Shown piece by piece: positions 1-15,527 of a stretch of DNA of 38,377 bases. The notes under the pieces were generated by a model, which worked only from the letters and a program-made list of their open reading frames with translations, had not been told where the DNA came from and searched no databases. Source of the stretch: a virus (taxonomy: Duplodnaviria; Heunggongvirae; Uroviricota; Caudoviricetes); the IMG/VR virus record IMGVR_UViG_2531839475_000013; one strand, 5' to 3'. Position 1 is the first letter of the stretch. Each line of letters begins with the position of its first letter. The position numbers were made by a program, and so were the translations under genes.

Positions 1-483
1 CTATCTGGTCAGGGTGTCGTACTGTTTTTCACAGACTCTTCCGGCTTCGGCTGCCCGGTCAGCATACTCTGCCAGTTGTCTGTTTCTCTCGAGAGATTTA
101 CTGAGCACGTCGGCAAGCAAAACTCCGGTGTCTGCGGCTGACGTCCCAGCGCCGACAATGGCGTTATACTGCCTGAGCTGCTCACGGATGGCAACGAGCT
201 GTTGCTGCAACCGGCCAGCGCGAGCGGCAGCATCAAGAGCATCATTGCGCGCCTGGTCGATCCTCTGCTGCGCTTCACGTTCATTGATCGCTTTCTCCTG
301 TTCGTAGTGCTGACGAATTCTCTCATCTTCGGTTTTGCGGTCTTCTTTCGCCTGCGCATACCCGGCGTCGTACTGACGACTGCCGTGTACACTCCAGGCA
401 ACAACTCCTGATATGACCAGAACAGCAAGCACCGCCATGATAATCAACTGTTTCCGGTATGCTTTTACGAATGCCAAGATCAT
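1..483 (-). CDS. Rz-like i-spanin (lysis)
   Basis: 160-aa ORF immediately after the endolysin with a 4-nt overlap; N-terminal TM helix ([14 protein letters not shown]) then a charged, Gln/Arg/Ala-rich helical domain; a lipoprotein ORF is embedded in another frame (Rz1 arrangement). Stop codon at 1..3. Confidence 0.6.
9..284 (-). CDS. Rz1-like o-spanin lipoprotein embedded in the Rz frame
   Basis: Out-of-frame ORF wholly inside the Rz-like gene; signal peptide with lipobox ([23 protein letters not shown]), then a Ser/Pro-rich mature peptide. Start could instead be the MM doublet at 245. Confidence 0.5.
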   Translation of the reverse strand: MNVKRSRGSTRRAMMLLMLPLALAGCSNSSLPSVSSSGSITPLSALGRQPQTPEFCLPTCSVNLSRETDNWQSMLTGQPKPEESVKNSTTP

Positions 484-2000: not shown

Positions 2001-2297
2001 TCAAATAGAGAAATAAACACAAAAACAAAAAACAACAGGAACAGCAAAATCCAACAGACTTCCCACATCCCACACGCGTGGATCAAAACCTCCCCACCAC
2101 GGCATGTTGATACGTTTCCCTTTCCCAAACTTTTCTATCCAGCGATATTCTGCCTGGGTGTGTTCACGCGCAATGAAGAACGTACAACCGGCTATCGCAC
2201 CGTAAGCCCAGTTTCCGGTAAAAATACCAACCAGTACCTGAGCCACAAAAGCGCAAAGCGAGTGAAGAAATGGAGTGACATCAATGCTCTTAATCAT
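2001..2297 (-). CDS. small membrane protein translationally coupled to the tailspike (function unknown)
   Basis: 98 aa; ATGA start/stop overlap with the tailspike at 2294..2297; two hydrophobic segments and a WWGGFDPRVWD motif; AT-rich. Confidence 0.5.
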   Translation of the reverse strand: MIKSIDVTPFLHSLCAFVAQVLVGIFTGNWAYGAIAGCTFFIAREHTQAEYRWIEKFGKGKRINMPWWGGFDPRVWDVGSLLDFAVPVVFCFCVYFSI

Positions 2298-4483
2298 GAA
2301 ACTTCCCCATTGGTTGAAAATATGGCTCCTCCAACGCCAAGTGTATTTCGTGTTGTGCTCAACCTCAGAGGGCTGGAGTCAGAATTAGAATATCCTGTAG
2401 CAGAAATAAAAGATCCTCCACTAATAGTCAACTGCGGAACATCGGCTATATCTGAATAAGTTCTGTCAGCAACAGTATTATTTATAGCCACATATGATCC
2501 AAAAAAACTTCTTATTGTTTGGTTTTTAACTTTACTTCCTTCAATGGTTATCCTACTACCACAGTCGGCAATAAATCCTGAATCTGCATCCAGCGTTGCA
2601 TTCATAAAAGAAGCTTCAGATCTCTCTACATCAATCCATCTAATATCTTTTGTGGGATTTGCACCAAATACATGACAAATATTAGAGTTAAACCTTACAC
2701 CATCTTGGAGGTGCATTAATTTTTTTATATCTGTACCCCATAGCCTTGGAAAATTAACAGATGCTCCTGCATGGCAATCAAATCCCAGCTCAGCCCCTGA
2801 GATATCTACAGCCTTTCCTGAAATAACAGCACCAGTGTCTGCATTAACGGCTGTTCCACAATTGCGCATATCATTACCAGCAACATCAACGCAACCCGCA
2901 CCATCAATACGCACACCAAGTGCACATCCATAAAAACCTTTTTCAATATTTGGTTCAAGGACTTTACCACTTGTTTCTGCATCACTTTCTTCAACGTCAT
3001 GTCGTCTTGCATCAACATATGCTGTATGAATGCAGGTTAATCCACGATATGAGCAATGTATAGTTTTATGGTCGCGTATATTAACATTTGAACCATCTCT
3101 TACATTCCATCCTATATAACAATAGCTTGCACTTGACCCCTGAAAATCTGCTTTAACATTATAAATACAATTAACTGACGCAACCGTACTCTCTGTGCAC
3201 CGTTCAAACTTGCTTACAGGCATTGATGCCTTGACATTATTTACCAGTTGCAGGGAAGAGTATCTGCTATAAGAAAAATCACATACGTAATACCCTTCTG
3301 GCATATATGCAGCAACACTTTCCTCATCAGGAGCACATCCGGTATGATATGCACTAATTTTTGCACCAAAACTACCATGAATTCCAACGTAGAACTTTCG
3401 AGCACCTGAATACGGATAGAAATTAAGTTCAGCTTTTTGAGTTACAATAAATGCACAAACATCGCTATCATCTCTATTTTCTTCGATCTGAATAGCAAAT
3501 ACAGGACTTTTTGCTGCATCGCAAATGTAAAATAAATACTTGTATTCGTAATACGTTCTAACGATTTTAGTAAACAAACGAGTGTCAGAGAAAACCACTG
3601 AGTCTTCTGATGTTATTTTAATCCAAGACAAATCAACACCTGAACTGAATTCAATTTGATAGTTGATAATATGCCCGGTCTTAATTCTTATTTCGCAGAA
3701 AGCATTACCACCATCCCACATAGGTCTCATTGACTGGGCTGCAATGATTGCATCTTTGAGTGTAGGGTAATCACCCCATTCGCCAACAGTAATAACAAAA
3801 GTATAATATGAGTTAAAAACAGCGGCATTTTTGCCTTTGGATATCAACTCCTTAATCATAAAAATATTATCTTCGTAATCACAAGGAGAAATTATATCCC
3901 TCATTTTGCTTTGAAATGTTCGTTGTCTTGCCCCGCTTCCTGACGGTATAAACCAACCAAAACCACCAACAACCCCGGCGATTGCAGCATCGACATAATT
4001 ACGCATTGAGCGATTATTTACAGCGTCCTGCTCAAATGATGGATCTGCAAGGTTAGAAATTTTGTTTTGCTTTGCATCGTAATATTTTGCAAGCAAAGAT
4101 GGTTTCATCAATGCACGTCTGAACCACCCAAAACATCGCTGGATCAGCATCGTCAGGTAGTCAAATGCATCTTCATGAACTTCGGGGAAAAATTTTCCCT
4201 GATTGCGAAGATCAGTCTCCTGCACCACATCAAGCACACGCTCTATCGTAATTCGCCAGCCAGCAGCAAGCGGCGACGGGAGAACCACTTCACCGCCACT
4301 ATAAGTGCCCGCTCCAGTTACCTTATAACCGGTATCCAGAACCAATTCTGTTACGTTCCCGTTCAGGTCAGACACCTGAACAACCAGGTCGGTTTTTTTG
4401 AAAATACGGAAGGTATACGGAAATGATGTCGTAACGCCGTTACCGGTGTATTCGTTGTGGTCAACTTCGGTTGAGACCGTCAT
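2294..4483 (-). CDS. tailspike / tail fibre protein (T7 gp17-like N-terminal anchor plus beta-helix-like receptor-binding domain)
   Basis: 729 aa; N-terminus (NEYTGNGVTTSFPYTFRIFKKTDLVV) resembles the conserved podophage fibre attachment domain; remainder is Gly/Asn/Ser/Thr-rich like pectin-lyase-fold spikes; GGAGAT RBS; C-terminal ~1.8 kb is AT-rich versus the N-terminal part. Confidence 0.8.
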   Translation of the reverse strand: MTVSTEVDHNEYTGNGVTTSFPYTFRIFKKTDLVVQVSDLNGNVTELVLDTGYKVTGAGTYSGGEVVLPSPLAAGWRITIERVLDVVQETDLRNQGKFFPEVHEDAFDYLTMLIQRCFGWFRRALMKPSLLAKYYDAKQNKISNLADPSFEQDAVNNRSMRNYVDAAIAGVVGGFGWFIPSGSGARQRTFQSKMRDIISPCDYEDNIFMIKELISKGKNAAVFNSYYTFVITVGEWGDYPTLKDAIIAAQSMRPMWDGGNAFCEIRIKTGHIINYQIEFSSGVDLSWIKITSEDSVVFSDTRLFTKIVRTYYEYKYLFYICDAAKSPVFAIQIEENRDDSDVCAFIVTQKAELNFYPYSGARKFYVGIHGSFGAKISAYHTGCAPDEESVAAYMPEGYYVCDFSYSRYSSLQLVNNVKASMPVSKFERCTESTVASVNCIYNVKADFQGSSASYCYIGWNVRDGSNVNIRDHKTIHCSYRGLTCIHTAYVDARRHDVEESDAETSGKVLEPNIEKGFYGCALGVRIDGAGCVDVAGNDMRNCGTAVNADTGAVISGKAVDISGAELGFDCHAGASVNFPRLWGTDIKKLMHLQDGVRFNSNICHVFGANPTKDIRWIDVERSEASFMNATLDADSGFIADCGSRITIEGSKVKNQTIRSFFGSYVAINNTVADRTYSDIADVPQLTISGGSFISATGYSNSDSSPLRLSTTRNTLGVGGAIFSTNGEVS

Positions 4484-4678: not shown

Positions 4679-4936
4679 ATGCAGCAGTATCACTATCCAC
4701 TGGAAGACGGATTTACCGAAAGGATTCACACGCCGGGAGGCGTCAGGTCACTGGTGGAGGGATCGCATTTGATGAAATTACTCCGGGATCTCGATAAGGA
4801 TGGATTTAATGTCGATGGCCCACTTGCCGAACTGACTGCACTGATTAACTACGTCACCAGCTCACAGATGTCTATGCGGGATCTGCAAACACATCTCGAC
4901 TATTGTGCCGAACAATTACGAAAACAAACCAGATAA
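4679..4936 (+). CDS. small antirepressor-like protein (standalone copy of the Bro-N antirepressor C-terminal module), LexA-controlled
   Basis: 85 aa from the ATG at 4679 (RBS GGAGAAG); sequence IHTPGGVRSLVEGSHLMKLLRDLDKDGFNVDGPLAELT...RDLQTHLDY aligns with the C-terminus of the downstream Bro-N protein (IHSPSGVLGLTENSLLMNLLNQLQEDGHDVSGAAAELT...RDIQTHAEY). Confidence 0.6.
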   Translation: MQQYHYPLEDGFTERIHTPGGVRSLVEGSHLMKLLRDLDKDGFNVDGPLAELTALINYVTSSQMSMRDLQTHLDYCAEQLRKQTR

Positions 4937-6047: not shown

Positions 6048-6257
6048 ATGGGATTTTGGTTCGCTCGTACAAAAACGAGGGATAATGCACCCAGCCCTCA
6101 GGCAAAAAATGCAGAAGTTCCGGCGTCAGCGCAGGTTAACAAGCGTGGTGGTGTGTATATCTCATCACAGCAAATTTCTGAGCTTCCTGAGGTTAAGGAG
6201 ATGCGTCGTCTCGCTGCTGCAATCGTTAAACAGGATCTTGCCACTGTAAGGAAATAG
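6048..6257 (+). CDS. small hypothetical protein, first gene of the accessory cassette
   Basis: 69 aa; strong RBS GAGGAGGAG; stop overlaps the GTG start of the next gene (TAGTG). Confidence 0.5.
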   Translation: MGFWFARTKTRDNAPSPQAKNAEVPASAQVNKRGGVYISSQQISELPEVKEMRRLAAAIVKQDLATVRK

Positions 6258-7120
6258 TGTTGTTAGCTCTTCTAATTATCCCCATTCTGGTTAGTGGTTA
6301 TATTATGATAACCGCTAACCAGTATCATTATTTCCGTTTATACCGACATGAAGGCCAGCTTCTTTATATGAAAGTTGCTGCATTAGGTACATATTGCCTT
6401 GTTGCTTCGGTAATAATTGCCGCATTTATAAAATATAAATATCCTGATTTTCACCTAGTTCACGATATGGTGGAAACTTTTAATGTAACGTCAAAACCAG
6501 AAACAGATAGAATTTACATGTGGCTACTTCTTCTGTCAGTCACATCAATTTGCTTCTCTTTGTGTTATGTATCTTTTGTTTGGCTAAAAGATCTTCTTTT
6601 AGGTTGTTTTTATAAACGTGATATTTATGACAAAATATCAGAGGCAATGAAAGCTAGGGTATTGCGAAAAACGTACTCCCAGGGTTCTTTAGATTTGCTA
6701 TTGCTTGATGCAATCGAATCAGATCCTAAGAAACCAATGTTAATTACTTTATCATCAAATAAAGTATACGTTGGAATAATAAATGGTTCTGGTGAGCCAA
6801 CGGAAAATCAAGGGCCACACCAACACATATCTTTTGTTCCTTTAATGTCAGGGTACAGAAACAAAGAAAATTTATCTGTTACATTTACAAACGCTTACCC
6901 AGGTGAAATCCAAATTAAGCGCAGTGCTGCGATAAAAGGGATAAGCAAAAAGAAAGTTCAAGGTCTAGAAATTATGGTATCTATAGACGAAATAAGTCAT
7001 ATATCATGGTTTGACTTTGAAGTATATAAGGCAACAAATAACAAAGTAGAAACAAAGGGTCATGTTGTTAATGTGACCAAAAATGGTCGCAACATATACT
7101 ACAGAAGTGGCAGAAAATAA
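6257..7120 (+). CDS. membrane protein, 3 N-terminal TM helices plus ~170-aa soluble domain, no recognised family
   Basis: 287 aa from a GTG start coupled to the upstream stop (alternative ATG at 6305); TM helices LLALLIIPILVSGYIMI, AALGTYCLVASVIIAAFI, IYMWLLLLSVTSICFSLCYVSFVWL; strongly AT-rich. Confidence 0.6.
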   Translation: MLLALLIIPILVSGYIMITANQYHYFRLYRHEGQLLYMKVAALGTYCLVASVIIAAFIKYKYPDFHLVHDMVETFNVTSKPETDRIYMWLLLLSVTSICFSLCYVSFVWLKDLLLGCFYKRDIYDKISEAMKARVLRKTYSQGSLDLLLLDAIESDPKKPMLITLSSNKVYVGIINGSGEPTENQGPHQHISFVPLMSGYRNKENLSVTFTNAYPGEIQIKRSAAIKGISKKKVQGLEIMVSIDEISHISWFDFEVYKATNNKVETKGHVVNVTKNGRNIYYRSGRK

Positions 7121-7145
7121 ATTTTACGCAGTTTAGGTGGCTTAT

Positions 7146-7649
7146 ATGGATAATACTATCTTAGGCGCATTGATAGGTGCAGTTATTGCTATAGTTTCCA
7201 CTTATATAAATGCAGGACAAGGATACAAAAACAGCATAAGATTAGAGCGACAAAAAATATTAAGGGATAAACGCGAGCAATTATTTATAAATTGTATACT
7301 TACTAAAAAAGTCATAGATTCAAGCACAATTACCATTCTCAATTTCGTAAAAAATGCCAGATACCACTCTGATAGTAAATTTGACGTATCAAGAGCGAAT
7401 CCGTTGCAAACGATGGAAATGCTAATAAACATATACCTTCCTGAGTATAAAAAAGACTTACAAGAACTCAATAATGCGTATCAAGAATTTCACAAATACT
7501 ACTCTCAATATACATGTGCACATACCTTCAAAAATATGCCTGATAATGAGAAGTCGAGGTTTATTGAGGAGGCTGATTTTTATGCAAAAAAGATATATGG
7601 CAAACTTAATGATATTAAGGACAAGATATCATTAAACTCAATAGTATAA
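7146..7649 (+). CDS. membrane-anchored protein, 1 N-terminal TM helix plus helical domain, no recognised family
   Basis: 167 aa from the ATG at 7146 (RBS AGGTGG); TM helix ILGALIGAVIAIVSTYI; AT-rich like its neighbour. Confidence 0.55.
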   Translation: MDNTILGALIGAVIAIVSTYINAGQGYKNSIRLERQKILRDKREQLFINCILTKKVIDSSTITILNFVKNARYHSDSKFDVSRANPLQTMEMLINIYLPEYKKDLQELNNAYQEFHKYYSQYTCAHTFKNMPDNEKSRFIEEADFYAKKIYGKLNDIKDKISLNSIV

Positions 7650-7723
7650 CAGCGATACTGCTGCTGACGGCTCCCGCTGCGGTGGGCGTTCTGCGGATTC
7701 CCGCCCAGGCGGCGGTGGCATTC

Positions 7724-7751
7724 GTTAAAAACAAGGCCGCGAAAGCGGCCT
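7724..7751 (-). terminator. intrinsic terminator ending the late operon (AGGCCGC-GAAA-GCGGCCT, T-run on minus strand)
   Basis: 7-bp GC stem with GNRA loop; on the minus strand it is followed by TGTTTTTAAC; lies between the convergent lipoprotein gene and the accessory cassette. Confidence 0.6.
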
Positions 7752-7763
7752 GTGACATGTCAC
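7752..7763. repeat. perfect 12-bp palindrome GTGACATGTCAC (copy 1 of 3)
   Basis: Identical 12-mer also at 25171..25182 and 27436..27447; abuts the terminator hairpin. Confidence 0.8.
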
Positions 7764-7766
7764 GAC

Positions 7767-8180
7767 TTATAAAGATGACTGATATTTTACAACTCTGTTC
7801 ATGGCATCTTTTTTCACCGAGCTGATATCAGTTCTTATTTTGGCTTCGTCATTACTGCTTATCATGCTATTAATTTTTTGCACTGACATGCCGTTTCTTT
7901 CAGCCATTGCACATACAGCAGCATCGTATGAAGAACTCGCTGCGATGGATATCACCTTGTTACACTCAAACACAGCACCTTCAGCAATATCAGATGCCGA
8001 TGAGGCTGGCTTGGTATAAGTCTTGACGTAGTGATCAATACAACTATCCTTCGCCGTCTTGGCAAGAGAAAAATCCATTTTAACTTTGTCGCAATATGCC
8101 TTATCAACACCGTCATAAACATCATAGGATGTCGAGCAAGCGGATATCAAAAATACCGATAACAGCAATAATTCCTTCAT
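7767..8180 (-). CDS. Cys-rich lipoprotein, last gene of the late operon (candidate exclusion lipoprotein)
   Basis: 137 aa; signal peptide with lipobox (MKELLLLSVFLISAC); six Cys in the mature part; lower G+C than the flanking virion genes. Confidence 0.6.
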   Translation of the reverse strand: MKELLLLSVFLISACSTSYDVYDGVDKAYCDKVKMDFSLAKTAKDSCIDHYVKTYTKPASSASDIAEGAVFECNKVISIAASSSYDAAVCAMAERNGMSVQKINSMISSNDEAKIRTDISSVKKDAMNRVVKYQSSL

Positions 8181-8189
8181 TGTTGTTCC

Positions 8190-10664
8190 TTATTGCGGAG
8201 TGACATCCTGAGGTCGCCACCAGTATGTCTGGTTAAACTCTTTCTTTGAACGTTGCTCCATTTTACGCAAATAGCCTGGTGAAAAATACTCCTGCATCTG
8301 GTTAAAGATCATGTGATCGAGAGCCGCCTTTAAGTACCAGAGATTCGCACCTGGCATCAGACCTTTCCCCAGCTTAACCAGATCACCACCAGTCTGCTCA
8401 TTCTTCCCTTCCACAGCATTTAACGGTATGCCCTGAGCAATCTTCACTACGTCATCAACCAGACCAGCTACCGGGCCAAGCATCGACGCCAACGCGCCGC
8501 TTCCGTACCTGGTGTGGTCAGAGAAAAGAAAATCACCATACAACCCTGCACCACCACCTTTTAAAAATGCATTTATCCAGAATTTAACCATGTTGTCACC
8601 GGTCATTTCTTTTGGATTTCTCCCATTAATAAGATCAGTAATCTGCATGGAAAGAGCACCAAGCATGGTTGTGCTTGCTAAAAACGTTGCTATATATGCT
8701 GCACGCCCACCAGCAGACGGCATCCCCATAGCTCTATGCCAGTGACGCATAACTACCGAGATAGGGAACGATTTAAACAGGAAAACACTTCTCGTTAATT
8801 CACCTTTCCATGTTCCACGCTGAAGACCAGACCCTACGAACATCTGTTCACGTGCGCCCGGTGTAATAACAGCCATATCAACTTCTTCAGTTACGGCACC
8901 GAGCAGTTTACGCATTGCCTCAAATTTCACGCGTTCAGGCTCACCAAGATGTTTAACTGCTGAATCAGGGATACGCATAATGCTTTCCGGTGTCAGCATC
9001 GTATTATTACCGTTCCCCCAGTCCTCCTGTTGCGCCAGCTTCCATACGCTCCAGTCTGTGTCAGTAATCCCTTTGCTTTTCAGGATACGAAAATCAGAGT
9101 CATCGAGGCTACGAAGGTCTGGTGTCCGTGACACTACTTCTCCCAGGCTTCCCATCATGGTTACGCCATAGGCGCGCTTGTGCGCATCTGACCATGCTGT
9201 AAGCCCACTGGCACGCATTACCGCCGTTGCCGCCCAACGAGACACAGACGGCCCCATATTATCCATCGCCCAGCGGTTAACGCTGCCAAGTAGAGATTCC
9301 ATCGCCAGGCCAGCGCGGCGCGCCCGCGCAAGTTCTGTACGGTTCGTTGGGTCCATAGCTTCAAGCTGGTTGCGAAATAACTGGTTCATTGGAAGGTTGG
9401 TAACCTTCGCAGACAGATACATGGTTCCAAGATCAGAGAACGATGACAGCAACGCGGATCCGAGTCTGCTGGCAACCAGCCAGTTGCGGATATTGTCAGA
9501 CCATCGCGCGATGTGCGGATTCGCTACAGGCTGTGTTTTTCCGGAAATAAAGTTGTACAAGTTCTCTGTTTTGTTCGCCAGACGCTCGACGCTACCGGTT
9601 TTACTCGGGTTAGCTGTTGCCGTTTCTGCCTTAACCTGATCAAGAAGGGAGCGGAAAACATGATCGGGGTTTGGGCCATATGTTTCCACCAGTGCAATAT
9701 CTTTACTGATACCTTCCAGGTGACCGACCATGATTTCCCATAGAGAGCGATCGCCATAAAGTTGCTGATATTGCAGATAGGAATCTGCATCTTTGAAATG
9801 TATCTGTCGTGATGCATTACCACGGTTAGCACGTGCGCCGGAAATTCGCATTCCGGTATCAGTAAGCTTATTCAGCCCACCAGTAGCGATCGTGTTATAA
9901 GCCTCTCCAAGAAATTCAGACAACTCGGCATCGTTCATCAGTTGTCCATCGGCTCGGATATAATATTTGCGATCCAGCTTACCTATAACATCGCTAACCC
10001 ACTTATCCTTTGATACCGACCCAACCTTTTCCATAGAATGATGTTGAGGGATCCCCCAGTTTTCGAGATAGCCAATGTCCCCACCAGCATCATTAAACCG
10101 GCGGCGCAGCAGCTCTGTAACTTCTCTCCACGCCTTAGCACCTTTTCTTGCTTTAGCATTGCCAGTATTTTGCCCCCGCATTTCATATACCAGGTCACGC
10201 ACGCCAGCTTCATCTTCAAACAGGCCAAAAAAGCGAGGATCAACTGCTTCAAATGCCTCTTGCAATTGACTCAATGCATAATCACGAGTGGCTTTTGTTC
10301 TGGATTCAACAGAGAGGAAATTCGATTTACCGTCTGCATTAAAAGCAATAGTACGGTTAAGAGCGCCAAGTTTCCCATCAGCCCCTTGATAGCTATTGAT
10401 AAATTTATCCAATCTCTGACGTGCGGCTATAGTGAGGGCCACACGACGTTTCTTTAATGCCGCTTCTCGCTGTAATTCTTCAGATGCCAATTGTGCTGCA
10501 CGATACAACCGTTCTGATTCGGAAAGTTGTCGCCACGACATCGGGTCATCACGAGCAATGGAGCGCATATTTCGATAAATGCGGTCTTCAATGTTCTGTA
10601 TTTCTCGCGCCGTTAACGTGCGCTGCGCCGCCTGCTGGACCGCTTGTATACATTCCTGTCTCAT
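8190..10664 (-). CDS. internal virion / DNA-ejection protein (T7 gp16-like position)
   Basis: 824-aa ORF inside the tail/ejection block; start overlaps the upstream stop (TAAATG) with a GAGAGG RBS; no catalytic motif recognised. Confidence 0.5.
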   Translation of the reverse strand: MRQECIQAVQQAAQRTLTAREIQNIEDRIYRNMRSIARDDPMSWRQLSESERLYRAAQLASEELQREAALKKRRVALTIAARQRLDKFINSYQGADGKLGALNRTIAFNADGKSNFLSVESRTKATRDYALSQLQEAFEAVDPRFFGLFEDEAGVRDLVYEMRGQNTGNAKARKGAKAWREVTELLRRRFNDAGGDIGYLENWGIPQHHSMEKVGSVSKDKWVSDVIGKLDRKYYIRADGQLMNDAELSEFLGEAYNTIATGGLNKLTDTGMRISGARANRGNASRQIHFKDADSYLQYQQLYGDRSLWEIMVGHLEGISKDIALVETYGPNPDHVFRSLLDQVKAETATANPSKTGSVERLANKTENLYNFISGKTQPVANPHIARWSDNIRNWLVASRLGSALLSSFSDLGTMYLSAKVTNLPMNQLFRNQLEAMDPTNRTELARARRAGLAMESLLGSVNRWAMDNMGPSVSRWAATAVMRASGLTAWSDAHKRAYGVTMMGSLGEVVSRTPDLRSLDDSDFRILKSKGITDTDWSVWKLAQQEDWGNGNNTMLTPESIMRIPDSAVKHLGEPERVKFEAMRKLLGAVTEEVDMAVITPGAREQMFVGSGLQRGTWKGELTRSVFLFKSFPISVVMRHWHRAMGMPSAGGRAAYIATFLASTTMLGALSMQITDLINGRNPKEMTGDNMVKFWINAFLKGGGAGLYGDFLFSDHTRYGSGALASMLGPVAGLVDDVVKIAQGIPLNAVEGKNEQTGGDLVKLGKGLMPGANLWYLKAALDHMIFNQMQEYFSPGYLRKMEQRSKKEFNQTYWWRPQDVTPQ

Positions 10665-10669
10665 TTAAT

Positions 10670-12472
10670 TTAACCTCTCAAGAAACACGCCACAGCAACA
10701 TCAAACAGGCTGGAATCCTGTATTGCCTGCTCACTTTCCCTGTTCGCTTCATCCAGTACTTCACGCGCACTGCGCGATTGTGGATTACCATCATCATCCA
10801 GCACGGTGATTATCATGTCCGGAGATTCAAGCAGCGAGTCTTCAGCTATACGCAGATCAATATCTCCTGCCGGATCTGCCATCATTTTTTGTTCTGTCTG
10901 TTGCAATATCTTACCGGGCTCAAAAGGAGCTACTTCGTCTGGCGTCCTGACCTCTGCTGTTTTATAGAATGAAACAGCCTGAGCATTAAGTTCACTTTCT
11001 GCCTGCTGTCGCCGTGCCAGTTCTGCTCGAGCTTCAAAAAACTGACCTCCAGGCTCGTGCGGCGCCAACGCGTTACGGGAAAATTCCAGGCGTTCTTGTG
11101 CCTGCCGGATTCGTTGATCAATATCGCGAAGTCTGGCCTGTTTATCTGATCGAGCACGAGACAAAGCTTTACCGCTACCGGTTGGCTCTTCTGCAAGAAT
11201 TTGTGCACGCTGTTCAGTGAGATTGTCGATAATTCGTTGGCTATTAGCGATTTCAGACTGGTAAACCTGTCTATCGCCACGCGGCAAAAGCTGCGCAGCC
11301 TGTTCTTCAAGCAACCGATTTTCGATAGCGCGCGCCGTTACTCCATCATCTACAGATGACAGAGCCTCATTAACTGCCTGAGACAGCAGATTCTTGCGCC
11401 CAGGAATTTCACTGAAAGATGCAGACTCAACAATGCTGGCAACGTCTACAGGTCTCCCCTGGCTAACATCAGACATAGCTTTTCGCAGAGCCTGAATGTG
11501 AGAATTGCGCGAAAGCACGTTGATCGGCACGCCGGGAGCAATATCAATTTCAGCATGATGAGCGGCATTCGCCGCCAGTGCAGCATCGATATCAACTGGT
11601 GAAAAATTTGGTGCGCTTGTAGACTCGCCGCGAGAGTTAATAAATCTGCCGACACCACCAAACGCCACCCCAAGAACAGCATCAATAGCAATTGCCTGTC
11701 GATCCAACACATCATACTGGTTAGCCATTTCGCTATAGCCACCATCACGAAGCGTTTTTGCAGTAAGCCCACGCTGTGCCATACCGAACGCAATATTTGT
11801 ACCTGCGGCATAGGCAATATCTGGCGTTGCACGTACTGCTGTTGCTGCGGCGCGTCGCACTGAACTCTCACCCGTCCGCGCAAGCTGAGCCGCCACACCT
11901 TCCGCCAGCGCACCACCAGCACGTAACCCGAGGCTCATAGGGATCAGTGTTCCGGCACCAGCAGTAATGCCCTGCACTAATCCCGCTTCCTGCGCCGTCC
12001 TGAAATCAACACCCTGTGCTGTCAGCCGTTCAAACTCAGAAAAACCCTGTAGCGAAGTTACCGCCGCTGCACCTCCGACAGGACCACCGAGCGTTGTACC
12101 GACAACAGCCTGCCCGCCCATATCGAACAACCCATAAAGAACCTGCCCGGCGGTTCCGGTTGTCGCGGCATCAGGCGTCAGCCGCTTAACCTGCTGCTCT
12201 GCTAGTTTTCTCTGCTCAGCAATGTATGAAACTGAAGTGTCATTGAGCGAGGTGTTTTCGTTAACAAACTGAGCAATCGGGGATACGATTTTATCCATCC
12301 CTGCCCATAGCAACTGATCTGGCTTTGCCACCAGCCCGGAGTACAAACCAGACAATGCCGCTCCTACAGCGTTGTCGAAAAAACCAACATCGCTGTTAAA
12401 GCCAGCTGGATTTGATGCTGCTTCGTCAAGCTGCTGATTCTGGTTTACTGGATTAAGGCCAAAGTAACTCAT
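10670..12472 (-). CDS. internal virion protein (Gly/Ala-rich)
   Basis: 600 aa, Gly/Ala-rich N-terminal half and coiled-coil-like C-terminal half; 4-nt overlap with the upstream gene. Confidence 0.5.
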   Translation of the reverse strand: MSYFGLNPVNQNQQLDEAASNPAGFNSDVGFFDNAVGAALSGLYSGLVAKPDQLLWAGMDKIVSPIAQFVNENTSLNDTSVSYIAEQRKLAEQQVKRLTPDAATTGTAGQVLYGLFDMGGQAVVGTTLGGPVGGAAAVTSLQGFSEFERLTAQGVDFRTAQEAGLVQGITAGAGTLIPMSLGLRAGGALAEGVAAQLARTGESSVRRAAATAVRATPDIAYAAGTNIAFGMAQRGLTAKTLRDGGYSEMANQYDVLDRQAIAIDAVLGVAFGGVGRFINSRGESTSAPNFSPVDIDAALAANAAHHAEIDIAPGVPINVLSRNSHIQALRKAMSDVSQGRPVDVASIVESASFSEIPGRKNLLSQAVNEALSSVDDGVTARAIENRLLEEQAAQLLPRGDRQVYQSEIANSQRIIDNLTEQRAQILAEEPTGSGKALSRARSDKQARLRDIDQRIRQAQERLEFSRNALAPHEPGGQFFEARAELARRQQAESELNAQAVSFYKTAEVRTPDEVAPFEPGKILQQTEQKMMADPAGDIDLRIAEDSLLESPDMIITVLDDDGNPQSRSAREVLDEANRESEQAIQDSSLFDVAVACFLRG

Positions 12473-14982
12473 TGAGGAATATCTCCGGAGAATCTCTGAC
12501 GCTTCTGTGTCAGATTAAGAACAACGGGAGAACCATCGTCTTTCAGCAGATAACCAGTACCAAGTTTCACCAGGTACTGACTATCGCCGTAACTTTGCAA
12601 ACCATACTGACCAGGCGGTGTTTTTATCCCGGAGCCGACAACTTGTTCATTCCAAGCCTGATTAACCTGCTTATCGAATTGCTCTGCAGACATTCCCCAC
12701 GGCAAAAGGACATTCCCCATTCCGTTATAGTCATGCACGCCACCTGTAGCTACGTTAACAGCCTGTTTCCAGACATCATTGTCAATTTCGCCTGATACCA
12801 CGCCTTTTTTCGCCATCACACCAGCGTAATAATCCTTTGCGATCTCGTATGCCATTGATGCCCCCTGAGCGTCACCAGCAAATGCATCCTTCACCATGTC
12901 AGAAAACTCAAGGCGAAGATCAGCATCTTTAGGCATCGGAATACCTTTCGCATCATCAGTACCTTTACGAGCCGCCGCGCCAGCAATAATTGTCTGCGCA
13001 GCGGTTTCAGGAGACACGGAAACATCCGGATTAAACCAGTTTTTTTCTGCCAAAATACCACCAGGCTTATCCATCAGTATCCCGGCAACGGCAGCAGATG
13101 GAGCGTTGGCGCTGATCTGCTGTAGTGCTGACATATACACCTGCCCACCACCAGTGCTCTGCCTGATGGTATCGAGATATGCTGCCTGTTGGGAAACGGG
13201 CGCATCACGAAAGAAAACACCGATCTGATTGGCCTCGTCTTTGGAAAAGAACGTCAGTGGAGTGCCATATGACTTAGCAAGGTCACTGACCTGAGCAGCA
13301 CGCAAGGCAACGCTCTGTCCAAAGTTATCCTTATTGCTCATGTCGATAGGCTTTGCCTGTCCGGCGGAAAGAGAGAACTGTACAGGATCAGCCTGTCGCT
13401 GCTTTATCACCTGACTTGCAGCCGACACAACGTTGTCATAAAGAGCGGCTCGTGCCGCATAACCCTCCCCTGTCTCACCAGTATCCGGGCGTAATTGCTC
13501 AACATATGCTGTAATGCTGCTTGTCGGCATGTTGCGGAAAGAGCCTATATACTGTCCGGCGATTTGCGTATTTCTGAACTCGGTATATCGCAGGTTTCCT
13601 TCTCTTACTCCATAAGCTGCAATAAAATCAGCCTCACCAGGTGGGTTAGGAAATTCAACGCCACGCATATACGCAGCTGTCGCATCGCGAACCTGACTGT
13701 CAATCATCGTTTTATATTCAGCCTGCTGCTGCCGACGCAGTTGACCCGCCTGTCGCATAAAACTTGCCTGCGCCTCAGGAGATGCCGCATCGAATGCTGC
13801 ATTACCGGTATAGCGTTTGGTGTTGGTTGGAATTGTTGATAAACCAAGTGCTGCACTGACACCAGCAGTTAACTGCTGATCACTGTATGGCTGGCTACCG
13901 TTCTCATGATGGATAATGGCTGCACAAAGCGCCTTCAGGGTATCAGGATTTGATGCATCGAGAGGCTCATCAGCAGAAACGCCAAGTTGTTCGCACACCG
14001 CTTTGATATACGACATAGTGTCATTTTTATCAGCAGGCGGTGCCCAGCGATTAATTATCTCGCTGACGGTATCAATACCCTGCCTCTGATACGACATCAG
14101 GTTCCGCCCTAATGCACGAATCCCGTGTTCAGGTGTTTCGAATTTAGCAAATCGACCATCATCACCGGTCTGGCCTACCCACGGATTAGTTTTGCTGTAT
14201 TCGAGATTTCCTGGGTTATTGTTGCGTATGCCACGGGCACGCTCGGAAGAGTCACTATCTGCTACAGCACGGCGAGCTCCAGCAGCAGTATCACTTAACT
14301 CGCCATTACTTTGGATGAATGCGGTCGCATTGTTTGCCGACCACTGGGACAATGCAGCATCAGCAACCTTCTCTTTAAACTCGATTTTCTTGGCCTGGAT
14401 TTGCTCGTTGCTCCAGCCATGTGCAACACCGTACTCCTCAATTTGCTGGAAAGTTTGCTTGTTAGCCAATACGTATGCGGCGTTGTCGCCATACAATGCT
14501 GCGGCATTTTTACCATTGTTCAGCAGTGTCGCCTGAAACTGGCCTTCTTCGTAGGCATTAATTTGCCCTATCTCGTGTCGCCCGGCCTGCGTAGTGAACT
14601 GAATGCGCTGCTGCTGCGCCTGCTGCATGAAAGCATTACGAGCCTGTTCATCCGGCAGAGACATAGCCAGTTGTTCGACCTGAGCATCAAACTGCTGCGT
14701 ATACTCATGGCCTTTTCCAATAGCATTTTTCCCTTTCAGGTTAAGCAATCCTGTTTCAGGATTATTCAGCAGATCGCTGCTTATCTGACTGAGGTTAAGA
14801 GATGCCTCCTGAGCCAGAGCGATATTGGCACGCTGTTTTGCCTGCCCCAAAACATCAATTGCCTCTGCCCCTGCCCGAACAAAAGCATCACCAATACCTG
14901 GCTGAGAAAACGTCTGCAAGCCTGCTGACTGAACTCCACGGCTCTGAACCTGACGGCCGGATACTGTTGGTACGACTGGCAT
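12469..14982 (-). CDS. internal virion protein with a putative cell-wall hydrolase-like segment
   Basis: Start reassigned to the ATG at 14982 (RBS GGAGGA, 1-nt TAATG overlap with the upstream stop) rather than the ORF-track start at 15057; contains GIRNNNPGNLEY...IINRWAPPADKNDT, which I associate with phage virion peptidoglycan-active domains but cannot assign to a named family. Confidence 0.45.
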   Translation of the reverse strand: MPVVPTVSGRQVQSRGVQSAGLQTFSQPGIGDAFVRAGAEAIDVLGQAKQRANIALAQEASLNLSQISSDLLNNPETGLLNLKGKNAIGKGHEYTQQFDAQVEQLAMSLPDEQARNAFMQQAQQQRIQFTTQAGRHEIGQINAYEEGQFQATLLNNGKNAAALYGDNAAYVLANKQTFQQIEEYGVAHGWSNEQIQAKKIEFKEKVADAALSQWSANNATAFIQSNGELSDTAAGARRAVADSDSSERARGIRNNNPGNLEYSKTNPWVGQTGDDGRFAKFETPEHGIRALGRNLMSYQRQGIDTVSEIINRWAPPADKNDTMSYIKAVCEQLGVSADEPLDASNPDTLKALCAAIIHHENGSQPYSDQQLTAGVSAALGLSTIPTNTKRYTGNAAFDAASPEAQASFMRQAGQLRRQQQAEYKTMIDSQVRDATAAYMRGVEFPNPPGEADFIAAYGVREGNLRYTEFRNTQIAGQYIGSFRNMPTSSITAYVEQLRPDTGETGEGYAARAALYDNVVSAASQVIKQRQADPVQFSLSAGQAKPIDMSNKDNFGQSVALRAAQVSDLAKSYGTPLTFFSKDEANQIGVFFRDAPVSQQAAYLDTIRQSTGGGQVYMSALQQISANAPSAAVAGILMDKPGGILAEKNWFNPDVSVSPETAAQTIIAGAAARKGTDDAKGIPMPKDADLRLEFSDMVKDAFAGDAQGASMAYEIAKDYYAGVMAKKGVVSGEIDNDVWKQAVNVATGGVHDYNGMGNVLLPWGMSAEQFDKQVNQAWNEQVVGSGIKTPPGQYGLQSYGDSQYLVKLGTGYLLKDDGSPVVLNLTQKRQRFSGDIPQ

Positions 14983-15527
14983 TATAATCCTCCGGGTAAT
15001 CTGGTTCCTGCTGCTGCCCCGATTGGCGCAGGGGTGCTTTGAGTAAACGGACTCCACGTCCCACCAAACATCTGGTACGCACCGTATGCCTTCAGAGGCG
15101 CAGTGAGCAATGTTGTTGCTGCTCCCACATTCCCCTGTTTACGGGCTGAACTGGCTTCTGCTTTATAGTTGGCAGCCTGAACCTGATAACCGTAAGCCTC
15201 GCGTTGCGCGTTATTCACCGTCGTCAGCGAATCAAGAGCGCCAAACTGGGCAGTGTCGCCAAATATATCCAGCGCGTTACCGGTAGATAAATCGGCGCCG
15301 GTCGCCCCCATTGTCGCCGCTTGAGTACCAAGCCGCTGTCGGGTCTCTCTGCGCCGTTGCTCAGCTTCAGCGTTACCTCTGTTTATTGCATCATTTGCCT
15401 GAGCTGTGGCTATATCTGCGTTCGCTTCTGCAACCTTCGAGGCATACTTTCCCTGTTGGTACTGGGTGTATGCCTGAATGCCACTCATGGCGAGCATTGC
15501 GCCACCAGCAATAACCGGATCGCACAT
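14982..15527 (-). CDS. internal virion protein (T7 gp14-like position)
   Basis: 181 aa, Ala/Gln/Gly-rich; in the ejection-protein block. Confidence 0.4.
   Translation of the reverse strand: MCDPVIAGGAMLAMSGIQAYTQYQQGKYASKVAEANADIATAQANDAINRGNAEAEQRRRETRQRLGTQAATMGATGADLSTGNALDIFGDTAQFGALDSLTTVNNAQREAYGYQVQAANYKAEASSARKQGNVGAATTLLTAPLKAYGAYQMFGGTWSPFTQSTPAPIGAAAGTRLPGGL

Follow-up and report, generated by a model that had tools for sequence, protein, structure and literature searches.

In phage P22, the exclusion gene sieA lies between gene 16, the last ejection gene, and gene 9, the tailspike gene; SieA blocks the conduit of ejection proteins, and only about a third of the P22-like phages carry its gene (PMC10883804). 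Here we describe a gene that occupies the corresponding position in a different podovirus lineage. It codes for a predicted lipoprotein precursor of 137 amino acids (aa) and is found in IMG/VR virus record IMGVR_UViG_2531839475_000013, a stretch of 38,377 nucleotides (nt) from a virus of the class Caudoviricetes, which we call the window. To judge by sequence similarity, the window is an Escherichia coli prophage of the epsilon15/phiV10 type (Uetakevirus), and the gene is best read as that of a small accessory envelope protein of this prophage. Of the roles considered, its context most favours superinfection exclusion, or defence at DNA entry or envelope crossing, a proposal that we hold to be tentative though quite possible.

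The likeness to sieA is one of position and distribution. Both genes come directly behind the last ejection gene and before an anti-repressor block and the tailspike gene, both are present in a fraction of relatives, and both code for envelope proteins and are polymorphic among relatives. The proteins themselves differ. SieA, from P22-like phages, crosses the inner membrane several times and has a mass of about 19 kDa; the protein of the window, from a Uetakevirus, is predicted to be a lipoprotein of the outer membrane whose helical domain is soluble. It has a single N-terminal signal and lipobox instead of the multi-pass architecture, and no sequence similarity or family match to SieA types A to C. 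Expression from the prophage has been shown for SieA, whereas the gene of the window has no detectable promoter of its own. A first, sequence-only reading of this stretch had compared the locus with the exclusion genes of P22-like phages: the analogy of position with sieA holds, but the phage is not P22-like.

Cor, from phages phi80, N15 and HK022, and Llp, from T5, are small phage-encoded outer-membrane lipoproteins that face the periplasm, as the protein of the window is predicted to do; all come from accessory genes near genes for host entry. Llp also carries a disulfide, and is thought to act on the periplasmic face of FhuA. However, Cor and Llp inactivate FhuA for siphoviruses, whereas the phage of the window is a podovirus that binds O-antigen and for which no protein receptor is known, and its lipoprotein gene adjoins those of ejection proteins, not that of a receptor-binding protein. 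We found no annotated PHROG, Pfam or NCBIfam match to Cor or Llp, and no viral or PDB structural neighbour. No similarity of sequence or fold links the protein to any exclusion protein. Receptor blocking of the Cor/Llp type, which the sequence-only reading had brought up, is not borne out.

Another point of comparison is Spackle (Sp) of phage T4, a small secreted helical protein of the periplasm that inhibits the tail lysozyme of a superinfecting phage and blocks penetration of the envelope. The ejection module of the window also has a transglycosylase, but Spackle is not lipidated, and PDB fold searches show no similarity between it and the protein of the window.

The gene and its conservation

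The regions that flank the gene are 79-90% identical to phages phiV10, phiv142-3, ZX5, HEMP4, PAS61 and SPN1S, and the genes upstream of it are homologous to phiV10p18-p20 and to epsilon15 gp15-gp17. An unbroken series on the minus strand leads from the terminase, portal and major capsid genes to the internal-virion/ejection module, which codes for proteins of 154 aa, 181 aa (T7_gp14-like), 862 aa (SLT-bearing), 600 aa and 824 aa (gp17-like); the lipoprotein gene is the last of the series. Pfam T7_gp14 and SLT matches fall on the equivalent genes of related prophages, and the 824-aa protein is a homologue of phiV10p20 and epsilon15 gp17, relatives of which are annotated ‘internal virion protein’ or ‘pilot protein’. 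Only 9 nt separate the stop of the 824-aa gene from the start of the lipoprotein gene.

The precursor has the N-terminus MKELLLLSVFLISAC in the translation of the open reading frame (ORF), and the full protein sequence opens MKELLLLSVFLISACSTSYDVYDG. Compared with the Citrobacter/Enterobacter allele, the ratio of nonsynonymous to synonymous substitutions (dN/dS) is about 0.05 at a dS of about 0.5, so the protein is made and is under constraint. The ORF is a genuine, constrained lipoprotein gene; that it might be a pseudogene was rejected.

In other prophages, the gene keeps its place. The Citrobacter/Enterobacter copy, with 95% identity, and the Cedecea copy, with 55%, sit directly behind the gp17-like gene of their prophages. 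A copy with 26% identity ends the equivalent operon of a metagenomic epsilon15-like phage, where an additional gene for a secreted protein of 191 aa separates it from the gp17-like gene. Given that copies only 55% and 26% identical are still found at the end of the operon, the linkage to the ejection module is old; together with the low dN/dS, the conserved position puts the observation beyond chance. The neighbouring tailspikes and O-antigen-modifying genes, on the other hand, differ among the prophages that bear the lipoprotein: the lipoprotein is not tied to a type of tailspike or O-antigen, which speaks against the primary receptor as its target and in favour of a conserved one. The 191-aa protein is itself rich in cysteines and belongs to PHROG 11983, of unknown function (L018 7366-7941; L019 1133-1708); its gene, next to the lipoprotein homologue and behind the gp17-like gene, indicates that this place can hold two envelope proteins.

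The sequence-only reading had proposed a homology and structure search as a check. This search returned PHROG 8691 alone, a family of unknown function, with E = 1.6e-91 and residues 1-137 aligned to the whole of the 137-position profile, and no structural neighbour. The protein is identical to the E. coli entry A0A229AA42_ECOLX (‘hypothetical protein/Lipoprotein’), and its exact sequence is found on at least 1000 public contigs, labelled ‘hypothetical protein’ or ‘Lipoprotein’. The family is very small. At 90% identity, it forms 17 clusters among 5.8 billion proteins; a broader profile applied to the same collection finds 22 clusters, none of them informatively named, and there are 7 matches in an exhaustive HMMER search of 1.84 billion representatives. 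Its members have 137-142 aa, and each has the lipobox cysteine and four further cysteines, a set that is invariant down to 26% identity.

The sequence-only reading could name no protein that this one resembles, and no named family was found: Pfam, NCBIfam and PADLOC scans of the 137-aa protein gave only sub-threshold chance matches, to Linker_histone (19.5 bits, cut-off 22.4) and CC_3452 (16.4 bits, cut-off 40), and the PADLOC hidden Markov models of defence proteins gave no match at E <= 1. Pfam and NCBIfam scans of six homologues, of a 102-aa secreted relative and of a 159-aa Pectobacterium lipoprotein, both described below, were also without a match above threshold. Among solved structures searched by sequence, the best match reached only E = 0.67. 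The protein is encoded in none of 50,697 phage records searched with tblastn, and a literature search found no paper on it, nor on the function of epsilon15 gp18 or phiV10p21, the proteins encoded at its position in these two phages.

A slot behind the gp17-like gene

We fetched 80 IMG/VR loci through the C-terminus of the gp17-like protein, 77 of which were usable. What follows the gp17-like gene is a 57-aa peptide with two transmembrane (TM) segments in 36 loci, the lipoprotein in 20, a 46-48-aa 2-TM peptide in 18 and a 41-aa TM peptide (tm41) in 3. In at least 3 of the 36 loci with the 57-aa peptide, a second ORF comes next, coding for a multi-TM protein of about 98 aa (118 codons as called), as in phiv142-3. 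All cassettes start 10 nt past the stop of the gp17-like gene, except the 41-aa type, which starts at 9 nt. The terminator hairpin that follows the gene in the window, AGGCCGC...GCGGCCT, recurs behind cassettes of every type, in 70 loci out of 77, and the longer the cassette the farther away it lies; the pattern is unmatched in the remaining 7. Both phiV10 and epsilon15 have an annotated terminator at the equivalent site. The type of the cassette does not depend on the allele of gp17: the 46-aa and 57-aa types are also found behind gp17 C-termini that are 99% identical to that of the window. Two of the 20 lipoprotein copies (L076 and L077, from position 4913 onward) are cut to 120 aa and lack the conserved C-terminal helix (…NRVVKYQS).

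The lipoprotein gene is dispensable: its place is taken by different small genes in the isolated phages phiV10, phiv142-3, SPN1S, 65FD, Tyrion and epsilon15. Their products include a 46-aa 2-TM peptide (phiV10p21 and SPN1S_0020), the 64-aa 2-TM peptide gp18 of epsilon15, which is followed by the annotated terminator, the 103-aa 2-TM protein gp19 of Tyrion, and Orf12 of phiv142-3, a multi-TM protein of about 98 aa annotated as 118 aa. Epsilon15 gp18 and phiV10p21 share with the gene of the window the identical slot, the spacing of the ribosome-binding site and the terminator, but they are non-homologous two-TM inner-membrane peptides of 46-64 aa. An unrelated lipoprotein of 159 aa fills the slot in Pectobacterium; in Citrobacter werkmanii (L049 4913-5221), Klebsiella and Enterobacter, the slot is filled by a non-lipidated protein of 102 aa with a signal peptide (P0026-P0038). 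In the enterobacterial relatives, the common denominator of these occupants is the cell envelope, where the ejection proteins act. In contrast, two Sodalis contigs have an ORF that starts 80 nt downstream and has no signal peptide, and the more distant phages YeP5 of Yersinia and MPK9 of Pseudomonas have no annotated gene on the same strand after the gp17-like gene.

Among 5,426 complete E. coli genomes, 22 carry the lipoprotein cassette, and about 550 match part of the 701-bp query, mostly the conserved spacer and terminator or the end of the gp17-like gene. Presence in only some relatives and a deviating composition (39% G+C against about 50%) are two marks of a moron, in the sense of Hendrix and Juhala, that the gene displays. 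As to a third, a promoter and a terminator of its own, the terminator that follows the gene is the shared terminator of the operon.

Genome organization and transcription

The coordinates of the features are collected in Table 1. The sequence-only reading had found the ORF, its strand unstated, and had placed it behind the last ejection-protein gene, with a lower G+C content than the virion genes upstream; all of this stands, the values being 39.4% for the lipoprotein gene and, for the three virion genes before it, 48.6%, 51.5% and 50.1%. It had also called the gene the terminal one of the late operon. This is correct for the head and ejection unit, which ends 15 nt past the lipoprotein stop in a G+C-rich hairpin followed by a T-run, but not for the late genes as a whole: past the terminator comes a convergent block on the plus strand, with a Bro-N/anti-repressor gene and two ORFs of low G+C, and beyond it the tailspike and lysis genes resume on the minus strand. 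The gene order is thus ejection genes, slot gene, terminator, Bro/anti-repressor block, tailspike.

Table 1. Position of the lipoprotein gene, its parts and signals, and the neighbouring features of the window (position 1 is the first letter of the window).
Feature	Coordinates	Strand	Basis or remark
Lipoprotein precursor, coding sequence, 137 aa	7767..8180	minus	ORF list and translation; ATG start
Predicted signal peptide, codons 1-14, MKELLLLSVFLISA	8139..8180	minus	read from sequence; basic/hydrophobic
Predicted lipobox I-S-A-C, codons 12-15	8136..8147	minus	MKELLLLSVFL-ISAC15 fits [LVI][ASTVI][GAS]C
Predicted twin C-x16-C helical hairpin, codons 30-90 (C30, C47, C73, C90)	7911..8093	minus	invariant Cys spacings and AlphaFold2 helices
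Ribosome-binding site AAGGA, 6 nt before ATG	8187..8191	minus	overlaps upstream TAA stop 8190-8192
Intrinsic terminator, AGGCCGCTTTCGCGGCCT then TGTTTTTAAC	7724..7751	minus	terminator scan; ends head/ejection-protein transcription unit
gp17-like internal virion/ejection protein, 824 aa	8190..10664	minus	PHROG 684 ‘virion structural protein’; 5' edge of slot
181-aa T7_gp14-like, 862-aa SLT transglycosylase-bearing and 600-aa proteins	10670..15527	minus	PHROG matches
Tailspike gene	2294..4483	minus	beyond convergent block; lysis cassette further along
Rz-like i-spanin	1..483	minus	starts at window edge; lysis cassette
Embedded Rz1-type o-spanin lipoprotein (LALAGC)	overlapping ORF 9..428	minus	other frame, within Rz-like gene

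A lipoprotein gene on the late strand beside virion genes might be expected to code for an o-spanin or another lysis component, or for a structural protein of the virion. We regard this as very improbable, and in large part as refuted. The lysis cassette, about 7 kb away, has its own Rz/Rz1 pair, so the lipoprotein gene is not that of the o-spanin, and there are viable phages without this gene. A lipoprotein exported by Sec and Lol, moreover, cannot enter virions that are assembled in the cytoplasm. Epsilon15 and phiV10 are placed in the Bcep176 spanin family (PMC6139136).

The transcription signals bear on a second alternative, that the protein is a helper of the lytic cycle, made only with the late virion genes and not expressed in the lysogen as an exclusion factor. 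Like T5 Llp in its second role, it could spare the progeny wasted ejections on lysing cells or debris; or it could disarm virion-borne transglycosylase or ejection proteins that have strayed into the periplasm of the producing cell. The 9-nt spacer, the ribosome-binding site that overlaps the upstream stop and the lack of a promoter-like site upstream all agree with such a helper, as does the fact that the slot is filled in every Uetakevirus examined, isolated phages included, which suggests that the phage needs ‘some’ envelope protein. However, the occupants are non-homologous and belong to different compartments (inner membrane, periplasm, outer membrane), which is hard to square with a single housekeeping role; purifying selection on the prophage copies is strong from one genus to another; and homologues on plasmids and islands stand alone, with no phage late operon. 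On balance, we consider the helper unlikely.

Promoter scans upstream of the gene, and upstream of its plasmid and island homologues, gave nothing above the expectation from shuffled sequences. A promoter-like site does lie inside the region that codes for the signal peptide (8150..8121 on the minus strand, TTGATA-18-TATGAT, 10 of 12 matches), but in DNA so rich in A and T it has probably arisen by chance.

Two further features lie beyond the stop of the lipoprotein gene. The 117-nt spacer 7649..7765, which includes the terminator, is the source of most of the partial matches in the roughly 550 E. coli genomes mentioned above, and is also found in several phages, TL-2011b among them. Part of it is annotated in some records as a ‘transmembrane anchored protein’ or as a hypothetical protein of 53 aa. 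To all appearances, however, the spacer is no gene but the fixed 3' edge of the slot. Next to it are two adjacent ORFs of the plus strand, 6257..7120 (287 aa, 34% G+C) and 7137..7649 (170 aa, 32%), which converge on the terminator of the lipoprotein gene. Their products have N-terminal transmembrane helices, fall in PHROG 3630 and PHROG 36918, both of unknown function, and have no PADLOC match. This pair, which may be a second accessory or defence cassette, is present in 8 of the 5,426 E. coli genomes; three of the eight (CP069480, CP035865 and CP120567) have no lipoprotein gene in the adjacent slot, hence the two cassettes assort independently.

Predicted structure of the protein

Behind a basic and hydrophobic signal, the precursor has a canonical lipobox, as the sequence-only reading had noticed, and its cysteine is invariant across all homologues; Cys15 is thus predicted to be the lipidated N-terminus of the mature protein. 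The residue at position +2 is Ser16, and S, T or G in the relatives, never D; by the sorting rule, serine at this position predicts that the Lol system directs the protein to the outer membrane. The mature part was said to contain six cysteines. There are five in total (15, 30, 47, 73 and 90), four besides the lipidated one, and their spacings 17/25-26/17 are invariant in all family members.

Two AlphaFold2 runs, on alignments of 7 and 8 sequences, gave the same all-alpha model, with mean confidence (pLDDT) of 85.0 and 87.1. In the model, residues 1-23, signal and tether, are unstructured, the pLDDT of residues 1-17 being below 50; a helix (24-55), a loop (56-61), a second helix (62-96) kinked at residue 73, two short helices and a final helix (120-136) follow. 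The pairs C30/C90 and C47/C73 are each symmetric about residue 60, at the centre of the loop, and the simplest reading of the model is an antiparallel hairpin that two disulfides, C30-C90 and C47-C73, would staple. The model has no structural neighbour in PDB or viral fold searches.

The 102-aa secreted protein found in the slot of Citrobacter werkmanii, Klebsiella and Enterobacter aligns to the C47-C73 core of this hairpin (hhalign probability 92%, E about 6e-7) and keeps exactly this pair of cysteines, at a spacing of 26. It is probably related, though remotely, to the hairpin core, and the presence in the slot of a relative that is not lipidated indicates that the periplasm is the site of action.

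These traits recall the inhibitors that confer immunity to peptidoglycan hydrolases or periplasmic toxins, such as the immunity proteins of colicins and of type VI secretion systems (T6SS) or T4 Spackle, and the gene might be an orphan of this kind, travelling on mobile elements. The small all-alpha periplasmic domain with predicted disulfides, the non-lipidated relative that points to the periplasm, the SLT transglycosylase protein of the ejection module and the occurrence of the family on three kinds of mobile element are all compatible with it. However, PDB searches gave no likeness to Spackle, to Tai, Tsi or Rap proteins or to lysozyme inhibitors, and no cognate toxin gene lies beside any copy, so that we give this hypothesis little credence. 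It would merge with the exclusion reading if the target were the SLT of an incoming phage.

Relatives on islands and plasmids

Outside phages, the family has two branches, with 26-28% identity. In Providencia and Morganella, a homologue of 139 aa stands alone in integrative islands of the AlpA-DUF3987-YfjJ type (L014-L016 and L142-L145, 8001-8420), where the island core meets a cargo that varies and in which type I and type III-like restriction-modification, OLD/UvrD (Gabija-like), SIR2 and ThiF/ABC-ATPase genes are found. In Proteus and Providencia, a homologue of 142 aa is a backbone gene of non-mobilisable Col3M plasmids of 2.4-4 kb (L146 365-793 and L147 263-691; also L137 and L138); the plasmid of 2.4 kb has just one other ORF besides it. 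In related concatemeric metagenomic contigs, the Col3M backbone is joined by a gene for a pentapeptide (qnrD-like) or a GNVR (Wzz-like) protein. Published work links qnrD with Col3M plasmids; our literature search found no function for the plasmid ORF. Standing alone as they do, the relatives on islands and plasmids must be active in cells without an infecting phage.

This distribution invites another explanation: the gene could be a moron that alters the envelope for the benefit of the host, in fitness or virulence (resistance to serum or complement, stress tolerance, adhesion), as lambda Bor/Iss or TraT do. A lipoprotein of the outer-membrane type, of foreign composition and at the end of an operon, would fit, and so would the fact that clinical Proteus, Providencia and Morganella harbour relatives on islands and small plasmids, in some cases together with the qnrD-like or Wzz-like gene. 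Like the predicted product here, Bor and the Rz1-type proteins are phage-borne outer-membrane lipoproteins encoded on the late strand. But the protein of the window is longer, is not proline-rich and has a folded domain with predicted disulfide staples; it has no match to the Pfam family Bor, to TraT or to any other Pfam family. The alternative cassettes include membrane peptides of 41-57 aa, unlikely virulence factors, and the linkage to the ejection genes is strict down to 26% identity. We therefore find a host-fitness moron distinctly unlikely.

A possible role at DNA entry

The core of epsilon15 has been described as leaving the capsid and forming a tube across the periplasm (PMC12391199). 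Assuming that the lipoprotein acts where such a structure is built, the following mechanism can be proposed. The precursor would leave the cytoplasm through Sec, receive its lipid at Cys15 and be carried by Lol to the outer membrane, to be anchored in the inner leaflet. From there, a compact all-alpha domain would reach into the periplasm on a short tether, residues 16-23, and the helical hairpin, with its two disulfides made by DsbA, would form the core of the domain. Encoded in a recombination slot right behind the last ejection-protein gene, the protein would bind a component that is exposed to the periplasm and needed by an incoming podovirus, and the delivery of DNA would stop. Candidate targets are the trans-periplasmic conduit of ejected gp14-gp17-like proteins, its SLT transglycosylase, and the periplasmic face of a secondary receptor in the outer membrane.

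An accessory role in envelope crossing fits the data in three ways: the slot holds envelope proteins of varying kind and compartment in the enterobacterial Uetakeviruses, it is welded to the ejection module, and the relatives on non-phage elements must act in uninfected cells. Several observations weigh against exclusion. A simple scan finds no sigma-70-like promoter upstream (8181..8600, minus strand), and given this and the coupling to the late operon, the protein may act during lytic growth only. The other slot occupants offer no functional clue, PHROG scans of them giving ‘unknown function’ alone. The two truncated copies among the 20 show that the gene is dispensable and occasionally decays in prophages. 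The defence neighbourhoods of the island homologues are loose associations, and the plasmids and islands of Morganellaceae need not face epsilon15-like phages, so that the target may be more general.

A bolder extension, which we judge doubtful, is that the slot is a dedicated site of ‘conduit immunity’. Non-homologous envelope proteins, from 2-TM peptides of the inner membrane through periplasmic proteins to lipoproteins of the outer membrane, would be swapped in and out of it, each blocking a different stage in the assembly of the channel of incoming relatives. The lipoprotein with its twin C-x16-C motif would then represent a new, portable and structurally orphan family of periplasmic entry blockers, recruited by Morganellaceae islands and by minimal Col3M plasmids, of the type that carries qnrD, for the protection of their hosts.

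Conclusions

If the exclusion reading is wrong, the gene is an ordinary uncharacterised prophage moron. If it is right, the family would be a new, structurally orphan one of blockers that stop phage entry at the level of the envelope, and the principle of sieA, an exclusion gene parked behind the ejection genes, would extend to another podovirus lineage and to the periplasm and outer membrane. The ‘cryptic’ Col3M plasmids of 2.4 kb, of the type that carries qnrD, would gain a selectable function. The slot also offers, ready-made by nature, a set of six or more small envelope proteins, unrelated to each other, with which to probe how the ejection proteins of podoviruses cross the envelope.

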